From assembly GCA_964595185.1 (NCBI GenBank), contig CAZQOL010000003.1, positions 1 to 30,985 of the forward strand: a stretch of 30,985 nt of DNA, given 5' to 3'. The first letter of the stretch is position 1, and every line of letters begins with the position of its first letter. This stretch comes from an uncultured Candidatus Saccharibacteria bacterium. Lineage in GTDB: Bacteria; Patescibacteriota; Minisyncoccia; Phycocordibacterales; UBA9973. The notes beneath the pieces are model-generated. The model was given only the letters and a program-made list of their open reading frames with translations. It had not been told where the DNA came from and did no database searches. Position numbers and translations under genes: made by a program. Shown piece after piece: positions 1,215-30,222 of this stretch.

Positions 1215-1637
1215 TTATTTTAGCCTATCATAATGGTATCCTCTTTCATTTTTCTTTTTTATTTCAGCTTCTGTTTCTGTAATATATTCATCTTTACTTG
1301 TTAATATATTATCAGCCCAAAAAGTATATGGCTGATTAGCTAACAAAACATCTGTCCTAATAATAACTGGCACACTATAGGAATGTTCAGCTTCAATGTG
1401 TTTCATTAATTTGTCGCTCAAATGTTTCTGTGTCGCAAAAAGTAACATATATTGATCCCCTTCTTGGATAACATTCATCCAAGGATAAATAGAATTTATC
1501 AACCAATAATCAGCTGAGATGGCCAATTTTTCATTTATTGCCGACAACCCAATATCACGGGCCTCTCTAATTGTCGGACAAGTAGTGTAAACAAAAACAA
1601 TATTCTTTTCTTCTTTATCAACTCTTTCAAAAAGCAT
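1215..1637 (-). CDS. cutA: Divalent-cation tolerance protein CutA (divergent)
   Basis: VYTTCPTIREARDIG...EKLA...SIYPW...E..MLLFAT...IEAEHSYSVPVI matches the CutA pattern (TT.P..e.A..ia..l...LA..., S.Y.W, H.Y..P.I). Start moved to Met36 of the listed ORF (1637). Confidence 0.75.
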   Translation of the reverse strand: MLFERVDKEEKNIVFVYTTCPTIREARDIGLSAINEKLAISADYWLINSIYPWMNVIQEGDQYMLLFATQKHLSDKLMKHIEAEHSYSVPVIIRTDVLLANQPYTFWADNILTSKDEYITETEAEIKKKNERGYHYDRLK

Positions 1638-26457: not shown

Positions 26458-27318
26458 TTATATACTTTTTTCAAATTTCTTTTGTAATTCATTAAAGCTA
26501 TTTTTATACCATCCTTTGTCTTTTTCATATAACCAGTATTCAAAATTTTCGGCGTCAGTTCCATCTCTTAAAACAACAGCTTTGTTCGATTCTATGTCTT
26601 TATTAAATAGATTATGACGGGAACCATGGACCCCTTGCTCAAACACACTCGTTTCTTCTCGGCCAACTATTACTGGAGCTCCAAAATGACTACTGTCTTT
26701 ATTTGTTGGGTTATAAAAAAATCCTTCTTTAACAAATCCTATTTCTCCGTGATTACTTTTGGTTCTCGCCACAAGAGTAACCACACCCTTTTCATTGTTA
26801 GGATTAAGAATATATTTATTATATATTTCTTTTATTTTTGACGAATCCTCGGCATTTATTAATTCGAGTTCTTCAATAGAATAATCTGATTTTTTGCTAA
26901 TTTGATTTAATATTTGGCGGTCATAGAAAGAACCAGTGGGCAAATTTAAAGATTTATTTTTAATGATAGAAAGAATTTCTGATATACCCGTAACTCTATA
27001 ATATTTACCTTTTTCAATCGGTATTTCATTTAAATACTCAATACTGTTTCTTAATTTTTCTATTGAATCTTGAGTCTGCTGTATAGATGGAGGAATTTCA
27101 TCAGATTTTTCTAAACCAAACTCGGACCTAATATTATTTATTTTACTCGTAGTATTGTTAATACTATTTTCTTTTTGAGATATTTGTCGATTTACCTTAG
27201 ACAAAAAAGCAGAATTATCTCCTTTGAGAATATTTGTTTCTTGTTTGTGTTCAAAATTTTGCTCTTTTTTCTCAATCTGTTCAGGAATTAATTTTTGAGA
27301 GTTTTCTTGCTTTTCCAT
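26458..27318 (-). CDS. Hypothetical protein (N-terminal coiled coil plus globular C-terminal domain)
   Basis: Long open frame with the codon style of its neighbours; start placed at Met10 (27318). No family recognised. Confidence 0.7.
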   Translation of the reverse strand: MEKQENSQKLIPEQIEKKEQNFEHKQETNILKGDNSAFLSKVNRQISQKENSINNTTSKINNIRSEFGLEKSDEIPPSIQQTQDSIEKLRNSIEYLNEIPIEKGKYYRVTGISEILSIIKNKSLNLPTGSFYDRQILNQISKKSDYSIEELELINAEDSSKIKEIYNKYILNPNNEKGVVTLVARTKSNHGEIGFVKEGFFYNPTNKDSSHFGAPVIVGREETSVFEQGVHGSRHNLFNKDIESNKAVVLRDGTDAENFEYWLYEKDKGWYKNSFNELQKKFEKSI

Positions 27319-27426
27319 ATTGTTATTTAACCATAAAACGAACAATATATAAAGAAACTGGTGTGTTCATAGAAAAAATATTGATTACTTAAATTGGGTC
27401 CTATACTCGCAGAACTTCGAACTTTA

Positions 27427-27462
27427 TGTCTTAAAGAAATAGGATCCCCTATCTTTAAGACA
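27427..27462. terminator. Hairpin downstream of tRNA-His (possible terminator or 3' stabiliser)
   Basis: TGTCTTAAAG-aa-ATAGG-atcc-CCTAT-CTTTAAGACA; no clear U-tract on the minus strand. Confidence 0.4.
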
Positions 27463-27477
27463 CTTAATTTTAAATTG

Positions 27478-27549
27478 GGAGGTATATGGGATTTGCACCC
27501 ATGATAGCTCTTCCACAGAGAGCTGTGTTACTACTACACTAATACCTCC
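27478..27549 (-). tRNA. tRNA-His (GTG), with G-1 and C73; atypical D and T loops; CCA not fully encoded
   Basis: G-1, GAGGTAT/ATACCTC acceptor, GTGT/ACAC D-stem, GCTCT/AGAGC anticodon stem with loop CT-GTG-GA, ATGGG-TGCAAAT-CCCAT T-arm. Confidence 0.9.
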
Positions 27550-28028
27550 ATAAATTTTTCTTCTACATCTTTATCGTGATGGACAAGAAAATGACAATTG
27601 TGACACAACCAAACTAAATTTGAGATAGAATTATTTTTTCTATCACGGTCAATATGGTGCACAGCTAATATCCTTGTATCGTCAGTTTTACAAACTTTGC
27701 AAACTTTTGCAATTTTATTCCTAGACATTACACTCCTGTATGAATGTAGCCCATTTTTATAATTTGCGTGTTTTACTCCAATAAAAACCGAATTGCGCCA
27801 TTTTGCTTGGCAAGATTTATTACAAAAATAAGTTTTACTTTTTGAAACTCGTAAAGCTTTTTGTGTTTTATAAACTTCCTTACCACACGAATAACATTTA
27901 ACCACTTCCCCAGTTCTACTACCAACTCGCATACACTTCTGTGAACAATATTTCGCATGCCCGTTCTTAAGGAAAAACGGTTTTGCATAAAATTCATTAG
28001 CACAAATTTTACATGAAACTATCGGCAT
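27534..28028 (-). CDS. HNH endonuclease with two N-terminal zinc-finger repeats
   Basis: CKIC...YCSQKC; CYSC...FCNKSC; CKVC...VHHIDRDRKNNSISNLVWLCHNCHFLVH. The last 16 nt overlap the tRNA-His 5' end. Confidence 0.9.
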   Translation of the reverse strand: MPIVSCKICANEFYAKPFFLKNGHAKYCSQKCMRVGSRTGEVVKCYSCGKEVYKTQKALRVSKSKTYFCNKSCQAKWRNSVFIGVKHANYKNGLHSYRSVMSRNKIAKVCKVCKTDDTRILAVHHIDRDRKNNSISNLVWLCHNCHFLVHHDKDVEEKFMEVLV

Positions 28029-28053
28029 ATTGTTATTTTATCAAAATAACAAT
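28029..28053. promoter_or_regulatory. 11-bp perfect inverted repeat abutting the HNH start codon
   Basis: ATTGTTATTTT-atc-AAAATAACAAT, directly adjacent to ATG 28028. The regulatory role is inferred. Confidence 0.55.
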
Positions 28054-28080
28054 TCCATGTAAACTAGCCGTTTTCTGAAT

Positions 28081-28122
28081 AGTTCCACAAACTCTAGTGC
28101 TAACCATTACACTATAGGCACC
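28081..28122 (-). pseudogene. Truncated tRNA-His (GTG) 5' half (positions -1 to about 41)
   Basis: G-GTGCCTA-TA-GTGT-AATGGTTA-GCAC-T-AGAGT-TTGTGGA-ACT, then no T-arm and no pairing acceptor strand. Confidence 0.8.
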
Positions 28123-28209
28123 ATGACGACTCTAAATAAAATTATTCGAGTGATTACATCTTTATACCAGAAAAACGCCTATAAATCTAGGGCAAGAAAT
28201 ATATAGTTA

Positions 28210-30222
28210 TTATTTACAAATAAGACCTGTTGGTGGGTTAATAAGTTCTTTGTTTATACCTGTACTATCAATACAAAAATTATATTTAATCTCTCCTTTC
28301 TCTTTTGAGTAATCAGTTAGAATTGGAAATGTAAATGACCAAGCTTTTTGATTAGAATAACAATGTGCATTCTCATTTTCTTCTCCTAATATTTTTTTCA
28401 TTAAGAGAGAAATCGAACTTATTTCTTCACTTGTTTTCTTTGCATGGCCCAAAGGAGAAAATAATGATCCTGAAACTGGATCCATACAACTTCCATTTAG
28501 ATTTGAGCTCTTACCGTATGTGCCTTGTTTTTTATATAAACTTGAGGCTAATTTTCCAAAAGAAATAACATCATCTTTAATTCTTTTTTCCATAACCGTG
28601 TTAAAAAAATCAGTCATTAAAATAGAATTCTCTGGAATAACAATTTCATTTTCTTTATCAAAATCGAAATAAGTCGTCTTCCATTTAAAATTTATTTTAT
28701 TATCTCCAATGCTTGCATCTTCAAATCCAATTATTTTGGATAACGGAATATCTGCCATAACACTATATTGATATATATTGTTATCATCTTTACCTACCCA
28801 AACATCAAAGGAGTTTATAGTGCTCGAACTTAAAATTAAATTCAAATTATCTTTCTCGTCTTTTGAAATATTGGAAATGAAATTATCTACAATTTTATCC
28901 AAAAGTTTTTTTAATAATTGCTTATCGACATTAATAGAATAATGGTAAGTATCAATGCCCTTAATATTTTCTTGTCCTTTCTCAATTATTTCATCGTCAT
29001 TAATTAATAGGTTATATTCTCCTATAGTTTCACTGTTTATGTAGGAAGCAAGTCCGTTCGACAATATACTATAAGTATTTATTTTATTTAGCTTAGATTC
29101 AACCTCCGCATTAAACAGTCTTGGGATAAGGGTTATTTCTTTCTCATTGATTTTAATAAAATCTGATGAAGAATTATCTTCTTTCAACATCTGGTTAAAA
29201 CTGGAAGCTGAAACAAAGAGATCCGAGCCATCATTTTTAATATTTGAAGTAATATAATCTTCTAAAACTGAACCCTTGGCGTTTATTAATGTATCCGAAA
29301 TTGAATGATTGTCTTTTCTGTTAATCTTTCCGAGGATATTAATTATCAGAGTATCTTTATCTAAGGATTGGACTGCTTCCCCACTCAACAATCCGTAAGT
29401 AATATTTGAAAAAGAAGGAGAGGAAATCTCGATATTAGTTTCAGTCTTATATGCTTCTAAAGAAGATAAAGTCTTTGAATTACTTAATAACAAAACTTTT
29501 GGATCTTTTTTAATTAAAGAAAAATTAGTGTCACCATTGGCAAAAAACCAAATCATTCCCGCGGCTAATAAGAGAACTAAAATAAAGATAATCCATTTTA
29601 AGAATTTTTTCTTGTTTGGTTTAACTAACTCTGGGCTCTCTTGATTTACCAACAACAAATCACTCTTAAAAGATGAGAGCATGGCCCCTTGAGGCAAATT
29701 ATTTACTAATGATTTTTTGGGAGGTTGATTATCAATATTTGAATTTTTTGTGTCTTGAATAGTTTTTTTCGGCACAGAAATAGAATCAAAAGAATTCAAA
29801 GGTTTTTTGGGTATAAGAGTTGGAATAAACTCTTCTTTTTTTTCAAAATTTTCTTGATTAGTTTTCTCTTGTTTTATTATGGGGTTTTCCAACTCAAGAT
29901 TTGAAACTGAAACTTCATTTTTTTCTACCTGCTTAACTGGAACTGCCCGAGGAACCCAAACATTCGAAGGATTTGTATCTTTTTTCTCAATTATTTCTGG
30001 TTTCAATTCATCAGCTTTGGGTAATTCTGCTTTAAATATCTCTATTTCTTTATTTTGGGATTCAGATGAAATTATTTTTTCATTATTTTCTAAAGTCAAA
30101 AAACCTTCATCAATATCCGCTCTGTGCCAACCAGCTCCAAGAAGGTTGGAGATGATAGTATTTTTGGGCACATCTTTTGAAATTTGTTTGTTTATATAGG
30201 AAATTAACTCAGAAGTTATCAT
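28210..30222 (-). CDS. Bitopic membrane protein: cytoplasmic N-domain and low-complexity linker, TM helix, LolA/LppX-like beta domain, pilin-like Cys-containing C-terminus
   Basis: N-terminal LISYI...I...LLGAGW...IDEGF; TM WIIFILVLLLAAGMIWFFA; GQENIKGIDTYHY and DVWVGKDDNNIYQ; C-terminal C...CYS...AWS...FCIDSTG...C. Confidence 0.6.
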   Translation of the reverse strand: MITSELISYINKQISKDVPKNTIISNLLGAGWHRADIDEGFLTLENNEKIISSESQNKEIEIFKAELPKADELKPEIIEKKDTNPSNVWVPRAVPVKQVEKNEVSVSNLELENPIIKQEKTNQENFEKKEEFIPTLIPKKPLNSFDSISVPKKTIQDTKNSNIDNQPPKKSLVNNLPQGAMLSSFKSDLLLVNQESPELVKPNKKKFLKWIIFILVLLLAAGMIWFFANGDTNFSLIKKDPKVLLLSNSKTLSSLEAYKTETNIEISSPSFSNITYGLLSGEAVQSLDKDTLIINILGKINRKDNHSISDTLINAKGSVLEDYITSNIKNDGSDLFVSASSFNQMLKEDNSSSDFIKINEKEITLIPRLFNAEVESKLNKINTYSILSNGLASYINSETIGEYNLLINDDEIIEKGQENIKGIDTYHYSINVDKQLLKKLLDKIVDNFISNISKDEKDNLNLILSSSTINSFDVWVGKDDNNIYQYSVMADIPLSKIIGFEDASIGDNKINFKWKTTYFDFDKENEIVIPENSILMTDFFNTVMEKRIKDDVISFGKLASSLYKKQGTYGKSSNLNGSCMDPVSGSLFSPLGHAKKTSEEISSISLLMKKILGEENENAHCYSNQKAWSFTFPILTDYSKEKGEIKYNFCIDSTGINKELINPPTGLICK

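Follow-up and report, generated by a model that had tools for sequence, protein, structure and literature searches.

We analysed a 30,985-nt stretch of DNA from an uncultured Candidatus Saccharibacteria bacterium (the window; contig CAZQOL010000003.1 of assembly GCA_964595185.1) whose source assembly comprises 823 kb in 99 contigs at 33% GC and is 91% complete. The subject of this report is a cassette of ~600 bp on the minus strand, located directly behind the broken 5' part (the stump) of a histidine tRNA (tRNA-His) gene and consisting of an inverted anticodon-loop motif, a promoter, a zinc-ribbon HNH endonuclease gene and a second, apparently foreign tRNA-His gene. The features of the locus, in window coordinates, are:

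30222-28210, minus strand: upstream host gene, 670 aa, whose end precedes the native promoter block
28161-28190, minus strand: predicted native tRNA-His promoter region with an extended -10 element (TGgTATAAA at 28169-28161), kept upstream of the stump
28079-28122, minus strand: native tRNA-His stump, 44 nt from G-1 to position 43, anticodon GTG at 28088-28086, recognised by identity to sister genes
28073-28090, minus strand: quasi-palindrome of TTGTGGA (stump anticodon loop), 4 nt and TTCAGAA (left end of the cassette), a candidate operator or recognition element
28035-28063, minus strand: sigma-70-type cassette promoter predicted by promoter scan, TTTACA, 17 nt and TAAAAT, with TG before the -10
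27534-28028, minus strand: free-standing HNH endonuclease gene, 164 aa (Pfam HNH_3, phrog_1271, conservation and an AlphaFold (AF2) model)
27477-27549, minus strand: complete cassette tRNA-His(GTG) with encoded G-1:C73 (ARAGORN; Rfam, 60.7 bits)
27396-27461, minus strand: hairpin, TTCGAA box and decayed TAGGACCC, with homology to a trailing element (described at the end) that was judged by eye

The HNH gene and the cassette tRNA share nucleotides. ARAGORN calls tRNA-His(GTG) at 27477-27548 (-), with the start at 27549 once the encoded G-1 is counted, and the HNH stop codon TAG (27536-27534) coincides with positions 13-15 of this tRNA, so that the open reading frame (ORF) and the tRNA overlap by 15 nt, or by 16 nt with G-1. 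An earlier, sequence-only reading of the window had described this overlap with a different and complete tRNA-His correctly, and its expectation that the cassette carries the only intact tRNA-His gene was borne out for the assembly at hand. The same reading had recognised a tRNA-His 5' fragment, which is real (about 45 sister genes are identical to it), and had let it end too early, as the whole anticodon arm is kept, to 28079. The stump holds G-1, the 5' strand of the acceptor stem, the D arm and the full anticodon arm, with a single mismatch in that arm at 28080, and lacks the T arm and the 3' strand of the acceptor stem. It is called by neither ARAGORN nor Rfam; the complete tRNA is called by both.

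A tRNA half beside an endonuclease gene superficially resembles a tRNA intron or an integration scar, and a split tRNA, a duplicated integrase attachment (att) site or an assembly artefact could be considered along with these. We give almost no weight to this group of explanations. First, the stump acceptor strand pairs with only 2 of 7 bases of the cassette tRNA 3' strand, in keeping with the sequence-only claim that the two pieces cannot be joined and do not enclose an intron. Second, the missing 3' half (T arm plus the complement of the stump acceptor, one mismatch allowed) is absent from the whole 823-kb assembly, leaving the stump with neither a 3' exon nor a partner in the genome, and an Rfam scan of 26500-29000 returned the complete tRNA only and no intron RNA family; the two exons and intron RNA of a tRNA intron with an endonuclease ORF were thus not found. 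Third, genes for an integrase, a transposase or phage proteins are absent within about 5 kb of the cassette, as had been claimed for integrases, and the neighbours (MscL, RsgA, a zincin, a methyltransferase and unknowns) are ordinary host genes. An integrase-mediated tRNA island would bring an integrase and a direct repeat of the 3' end, and the duplicated part here is the 5' half. Finally, the suspicion of an assembly chimera can be put aside, because the same architecture recurs in four other independent assemblies of the genus and in five metagenome contigs, which brings the junction to five genomes and five contigs.

Comparison within the genus identified the origin of the stump. A stump query matched 79 of 93 genus genomes, about 45 loci being 100% identical over 28124-28081, and ARAGORN predicted a complete 72-75-nt tRNA-His in 24/24 of the fetched identical loci that reach past the match. 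These intact genes are syntenic with the stump, sitting downstream of an orthologue of the same 670-aa gene, and homology between the window and such empty sites spans the upstream gene, the promoter and the stump and ends at tRNA position 43. We conclude that the stump derives from the native tRNA-His gene and does not resemble it by chance. The native promoter block is conserved in genus genomes with and without the cassette, and it tracks the host lineage, not the cassette. It is also retained in one carrier (G065) whose stump has decayed by substitutions and indels next to an intact HNH gene and tRNA, which shows that the stump is not indispensable.

Most relatives have an empty site, for which the sequence-only reading had suggested looking: it was found in about 75 of the 93 genus genomes and at 75 of the 80 metagenome loci. 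A profile search found the HNH gene in just five of the 93 genomes (G000, G004, G111, G093 and G065), and a metagenome scan with a 26-mer of the stump yielded 80 readable loci, of which 75 hold complete native genes and five hold stump, HNH gene and tRNA-His, the five HNH proteins being 57-81% identical to that of the window. Behind the same genus stump, three types of junction were observed. The HNH genes found there form one clade (100/99 for four of them), indicating that the cassette entered the genus lineage once. By contrast, in a tree built from the last 460 residues encoded by the upstream host gene, which included the four carriers having that gene, the carriers are not a clade: G000 groups with the native G109 (100/100), G111 with the native G102 (100/100, short branches) and G004 with the native G066 (85/87), and the well-supported branches force at least three changes. 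Together, the two trees indicate that several exchanges with native alleles, whether gains or replacements, followed this entry. The carrier G111 and the native G102 have the same 70 nt in front of the tRNA, which shows host DNA reaching as far as the stump; about 84 nt downstream of the cassette tRNA are common to G000 and G093.

Outside the genus, we observed the same linkage of nuclease and tRNA. In about 34 genomes from many Patescibacteria families, each intact locus that was read has tRNA-His directly downstream of the HNH gene, and only a short, cut contig (L071) is without it. The identical 15-nt overlap is found in 18 genomes, and in 14 the tRNA begins 3-25 nt after the stop. Among 60 relatives each homologue of the ORF is followed by a tRNA gene on the same strand: homologues at 44-80% identity precede tRNA-His, a family at 29-36% identity precedes tRNA-Ser(TGA), and a third HNH family with another N-terminus precedes tRNA-Leu(TAA). 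When one genome per species was scanned, all 23 loci fell within Patescibacteria (including metagenome-assembled genomes (MAGs) labelled Saccharibacteria, Staskawicz-, Yanofsky-, Kaiser-, Giovannoni- and Nomurabacteria), with tRNA-His directly after the match in 22 of the 23; at four of them the match is limited to the N-terminal zinc-ribbon part. An even draw of 400 genomes of the phylum contained the HNH gene in 11, spread over 11 genera, with tRNA-His downstream at 12/12 loci. Together with the five carriers among the 93 genus genomes and their interleaving with non-carriers, this is a sporadic distribution with empty sites at the same locus. A search of 1.8 billion representatives puts the size of the superfamily at 56 clusters with E <= 1e-30 and 3,010 with E <= 1e-10.

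The nuclease gene and its flanking marker are co-inherited, in that tRNA-His adjoins the HNH gene and the core genus clade keeps the same tRNA. The exception is a genus-clade cassette (L103) with a different, canonical tRNA-His 38 nt after the HNH stop, from which it follows that the partner tRNA is exchangeable. The association that the sequence-only reading had predicted for this HNH family is therefore confirmed at all intact loci without being absolute. At another locus (L084 in G362), the HNH gene, of the His type and next to an intact tRNA-His, is interrupted by two stop codons (TGA and TAA); it is a degenerating copy, as expected late in the life cycle of a homing endonuclease. A gene order that is constant across many families, together with purifying selection, is also what an ordinary conserved operon would show, with the HNH product as a housekeeping factor co-transcribed with tRNA-His and the fragment as an unrelated pseudogene. 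We consider this hardly credible, given that carriers make up about 3% of the sampled phylum genomes and 5% of the genus, that the stump equals the native gene, that carriers are polyphyletic on the flank tree and that tandem duplicates (G055, G439) as well as the pseudogene exist.

The HNH protein combines two N-terminal CxxC...CxxxC zinc ribbons with a C-terminal zinc-bound HNH (beta-beta-alpha-Me) domain. It matched Pfam HNH_3 (1.2e-5), along with a TRASH-like zinc ribbon, and over residues 5-159 phrog_1271 'HNH endonuclease' (6e-21), a phage HNH PHROG that is its closest family. Across 18 homologues the cysteine pairs of three zinc knuckles, the third of which frames the HNH, are invariant, as are H124, H125, N137, N144, H146 and H150 (motif HH...N...N...CxNCH...H), which marks the protein as a nuclease of the homing-endonuclease class with intact catalytic residues. 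A structure search with the AF2 model (predicted local distance difference test, pLDDT, 83) gave no whole-protein fold match; for the C-terminal domain only, it gave relatives at E about 0.01, namely the Gme HNH nicking endonuclease, McrA and the HNH domains of IscB and Cap5. The closest solved chain by sequence is the HNH domain of a group II intron maturase, and the sequence and fold relatives all act on DNA. Ratios of non-synonymous to synonymous divergence (dN/dS) of 0.07-0.10 at a dS of 0.8-1.5 indicate purifying selection on the HNH gene. The gene lies within neither an intron nor an intein and has its own promoter-like signal, and is in this sense free-standing: the cassette promoter scores 10/12 with TG, and most homologous loci have the same -35/-10 layout at the same distance. 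Because the end of the -10 is 7 nt upstream of the ATG, a leaderless mRNA is likely. A tblastn search found no second HNH copy in the assembly, and viral contigs contained only two partial matches, confined to the HNH domain, and no full-length relative.

The positions at which native tRNA genes are broken provide the best evidence on the site of action. Stumps of tRNA-His with other sequence types precede the cassette in at least six further lineages (L053, L066, L070, L074, L082 and L083); most stumps outside the genus end within the anticodon loop (positions 33-38), that of L070 keeps the whole anticodon arm, and the genus junctions fall after position 38, 42 or 43. As the breakpoints cluster there, the anticodon arm of the tRNA-His gene is the likely site of action, and the HNH protein would cut or nick tRNA-His genes around this arm.

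An inverted copy of the anticodon loop, CCACAR (TTCAGAA in the window), is located just upstream of the cassette -35 and forms with the stump loop TTGTGGA, or a decayed form of it, a quasi-palindrome with a spacer of 1-8 nt. In the 110 nt before the start codon, 17 of 30 loci contain YTGTGG or CCACAR, versus 2.3 expected (maximum 7 in 500 shuffles). The location hardly varies: relative to the ATG, CCACAR starts at -41 to -51, in 12 of 13 cases at -47 to -51, while YTGTGG lies at -56 to -62 in 6 of 7 loci. Perfect palindromes are present in L061, L075 and L078, and variants in L150 and L164. We propose the motif as a candidate operator at which the nuclease, presumed to bind this sequence in its target, may repress its own promoter; I-TevI, for which autorepression of its own promoter has reportedly been described, offers a parallel. 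A DnaA box is a possible alternative in view of the likeness between TTATCCACA and the inverted anticodon loop; exact boxes number 20 in the genome versus 10 expected, and they do not cluster.

What replaced the native tRNA differs from it substantially. The cassette tRNA-His is 73% identical to the native one, the differences comprising the acceptor stem, the variable loop, the elbow and three flipped anticodon-stem pairs, and its nearest match, at 82%, is the tRNA from the cassette of a Staskawiczbacteria MAG; it keeps G-1:C73 and the GTG anticodon. Its elbow is non-canonical, with a D loop lacking GG, a T loop TGCAAAT and G at position 55, whereas the native gene is canonical. This rare elbow (A18/G55) is common to the window's cassette tRNA and Parcubacteria cassettes. 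Among 23 tRNA-His genes (L001-L072), all 10 without the D-loop GG (AG instead) have G55 and none of the 13 with GG does, those 13 all having a pyrimidine at T-loop position 55, where the G55 set replaces U. This covariation suggests that in a subset of Patescibacteria tRNA-His an A18-G55 tertiary pair replaces G18-Psi55 (Psi, pseudouridine). By its sequence affinities, the cassette tRNA is apparently foreign, and the view that it is functional is supported by its being the sole tRNA-His of the 91% complete assembly and by a compensatory T-stem change between sister cassette tRNAs. In G065 the cassette tRNA-His (L203, about 1440-1512, minus strand) folds into a clean cloverleaf with the T loop GGCAGTA; ARAGORN does not call it, so this genome would be annotated as lacking a tRNA-His.

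The tight linkage of a nuclease to a structurally unusual tRNA of the same specificity, with an anticodon-loop-like motif associated with the cassette, raises the alternative that the system operates on RNA, the HNH protein being an anticodon nuclease that attacks mature native tRNA-His and the recoded tRNA a resistant antidote, as in an addiction or defence module. Phage and defence systems built on tRNA cleavage and replacement tRNAs provide a precedent (for example PMC13096335). We nevertheless judge a toxin/antidote module to be very unlikely. The scars are in DNA, the native gene being broken at the anticodon arm in several lineages, and the closest relatives of the protein (phage HNH endonucleases, the group II intron maturase HNH, McrA and the Gme nickase) are DNA-acting. 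Moreover, the anticodon loop is common to native and cassette tRNAs, and carriers lack the native tRNA, which leaves nothing to poison.

On balance, we interpret the element as a free-standing homing-endonuclease cassette that probably (roughly three chances in four) works on tRNA-His by 'cut and replace'. The nuclease would recognise the DNA of the tRNA-His gene around the anticodon arm and nick or cut it, and the break would be repaired with a cassette-bearing copy as template. The recipient's 5' part up to about position 38-43 would be left as a stump and the native 3' part lost, while the cassette tRNA, recoded in acceptor, anticodon stem and elbow, would assume the essential function and may be resistant to the nuclease. 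All three RNAs would probably be made from the retained native tRNA promoter and the cassette promoter. By cutting at the 5' end of the tRNA, RNase P would deprive the HNH reading frame of its stop codon, which would tie nuclease output to unprocessed transcripts and keep it low. The central proposal of the sequence-only reading, a minimal selfish element that replaces tRNA-His with a recoded copy fused to its own ORF, is supported by the comparison, and each computational check that it had suggested (linkage, empty sites and a sole intact tRNA-His) came out in its favour. Its further supposition that the element cannot easily be lost went beyond the evidence, since the pseudogenised copy of L084 and the decayed stump of G065 show that the element does decay.

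Several observations weigh against cut and replace, and some of them favour a single ancient insertion that became domesticated. This alternative posits vertical inheritance of the cassette, treats the interleaved native alleles as reversions by recombination, and has the HNH gene and stump kept for a host function, for example that of a leader for the transcript, of a half tRNA with a regulatory role or of a DNA-binding protein that controls tRNA-His expression. The single clade of genus-stump HNH genes and the strong purifying selection on them fit such a history. So does divergence: cassette dS (0.8-1.5) is of the same order as, and only modestly below, flank-gene dS (1.25-2.0), which leaves room for old vertical inheritance with several reversions, and with both near saturation dS dating does not decide between vertical and lateral descent. 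In addition, no filled and empty pair from the same species, and no recent one, was found among 95 native upstream flanks, the best being G111/G102 with a flank 83% identical.

Most puzzling is the stump itself. The four cassettes have diverged at one in three third-codon positions (dS about 1), and in the same four carriers stump positions -1 to 38 are identical at 37-39 of 39 sites, while positions 39-52 vary. A neutral relic inherited with the cassette should have decayed, so a near-perfect stump at this divergence needs recent or repeated homing, or selection. We favour the view that the stump is the recipient's own, recently functional DNA, reset at each homing event, with the donor stump serving as the left homology arm; maintenance by selection is a possible alternative. 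Three further points count against homing: the right-hand junction is different in every genome, the viral contigs searched contained no vector for transfer between classes, and the anticodon loop shared by native and cassette tRNAs means that resistance must rest on the stem, the variable region, the elbow or something else. Cleavage, its target site and the immunity of the cassette tRNA are inferred from sequence comparison.

We nonetheless consider domestication of an ancient insertion unlikely. Carriers are 5 of 93 and interleaved with natives on the flank tree, the junction differs among them, the stump can decay (G065), and the same module stands at tRNA-His in distant classes with other stumps; the postulated reversions, too, would require lateral replacement of alleles. 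We tentatively extend the homing cassette to a joint reading whose odds we place somewhat below even. The cassette would then be a self-limiting, hard-to-excise parasite living in an essential gene: the stump would act as left homology arm and, with the inverted motif, as an autorepression operator, RNase P would couple nuclease dose to tRNA maturation, and the recoded A18/G55 tRNA would escape cleavage. Related zinc-ribbon nucleases would have specialised on tRNA-Ser, tRNA-Leu and others, and tRNA turnover in Patescibacteria would in part be driven by cassettes.

Among known systems, T4 SegB and the free-standing homing endonucleases of T-even phages (PMC2330249, PMC2988022) are similar in being stand-alone nucleases among tRNA genes with a sporadic distribution. 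SegB recognises a tRNA T-arm motif and drives the inheritance of itself and adjacent tRNA genes (PMC2330249). The likeness extends to a site that holds a conserved tRNA-gene motif and to co-inheritance of nuclease and tRNA genes at the expense of the allele lacking them. SegB is however a GIY-YIG phage enzyme that uses a T-arm motif, homes between co-infecting phages with homologous flanks and leaves no stump, whereas the cassette combines a zinc-ribbon HNH protein in bacterial chromosomes with an ORF fused to one tRNA and a cleavage activity that we infer. Also unlike SegB, the cassette would destroy and functionally replace a single-copy essential target gene. As the domain is HNH and not the GIY-YIG of the SegB family, the resemblance is functional only.

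Phage HNH homing endonucleases of the I-HmuI type, many of them nickases, share the HNH domain, and phrog_1271 has the same zinc-ribbon and HNH layout; phage T5 reportedly carries HNH homing endonucleases (F-TflI, F-TflII and F-TflIV) in its tRNA gene region. These enzymes differ in being phage-borne, with neither tRNA overlap nor replacement of a host tRNA described for them and no close relative found among the viral contigs. Intron-encoded endonucleases, of which I-Ssp6803I in a cyanobacterial tRNA-fMet group I intron is said to be an example, likewise invade a tRNA gene at the anticodon loop with tRNA function preserved; there, splicing restores function, whereas the cassette has no intron or 3' exon and brings a second complete gene instead. 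Integrative elements that target tRNA genes and supply a replacement 3' end also restore function by the element's own sequence, but their integrase, duplication of the 3' part and large size do not apply to the cassette. A literature search, of incomplete coverage and thus no proof of absence, returned no description of an HNH-tRNA replacement cassette in Patescibacteria. New here are the inverted anticodon-loop motif at the cassette promoter, the decayed stump in a sister genome and the rare A18/G55 elbow of the cassette tRNA.

By the usual view, a homing endonuclease persists in an essential gene only when it is housed in a self-splicing intron or an intein, or else it lies between genes. 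The cassette would represent a third way, in which the essential gene is destroyed and a working recoded copy, fused to the nuclease, is supplied. If so, it would explain foreign-looking or structurally odd tRNA genes of Patescibacteria that tRNA finders miss (as in G065) and show how the tRNA genes of reduced genomes can be replaced horizontally. It would further define a family of zinc-ribbon HNH enzymes, small at about 160 aa and possibly able to recognise the sequences of tRNA genes, and a natural coupling of a selfish gene to an essential RNA through shared nucleotides.

Some additional features were noted around native and occupied sites. In at least 9 of 25 genus loci, for example L023 (G109) and L024 (G102), the native tRNA-His and its terminator are immediately followed by an element of 130-190 nt. 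This element has ends that resemble tRNA-His (5' GGTGCCTAAG and 3' CCAGTAGGCACCC) and can pair as an acceptor-like stem, contains a hairpin that covaries between G109 and G102 as well as a GTCWGGGATTYGAAA box, and has no Rfam match. The window keeps the 3' half of this element at 27461-27396, which probably marks the right-hand limit of the replaced DNA.

Two diverged His-type HNH copies lie in tandem before one tRNA-His in two genomes (L004/L018 in G055 and L077/L085 in G439), an arrangement that a second cassette inserting ahead of the first would produce. Paralogous small HNH genes directly precede tRNA-Ser TGA (L005-L012), tRNA-Leu TAA (L013, L017 and L019) and tRNA-Thr (L016), with consensus extended -10 promoters placed for leaderless starts. 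At L017 (tRNA-Leu, z = 4 versus shuffles) and L016 (tRNA-Thr, z = 10), upstream sequence resembles the 5' part of the same tRNA, and these may be stumps. The similarity of the His stump to its cassette's own tRNA is no better than that of shuffles (z = 0), and because this known stump scores z = 0, the same test cannot find stumps in tRNA-Ser loci.

Finally, three loci (L069:2971-4191, L070:1501-2706 and L072:2977-4182) contain ORFs of about 402-407 aa that begin with the zinc-ribbon N-terminus of the HNH family, a type of N-terminus also seen on the cut contig L071. In these three the frame stays open through a complete tRNA-His into a helix-turn-helix, which is followed by a 'homing endonuclease associated repeat' (PF18780, 2.7e-15) and, after it, by more C-terminal sequence, so that the tRNA gene is nested in frame inside a putative nuclease gene.

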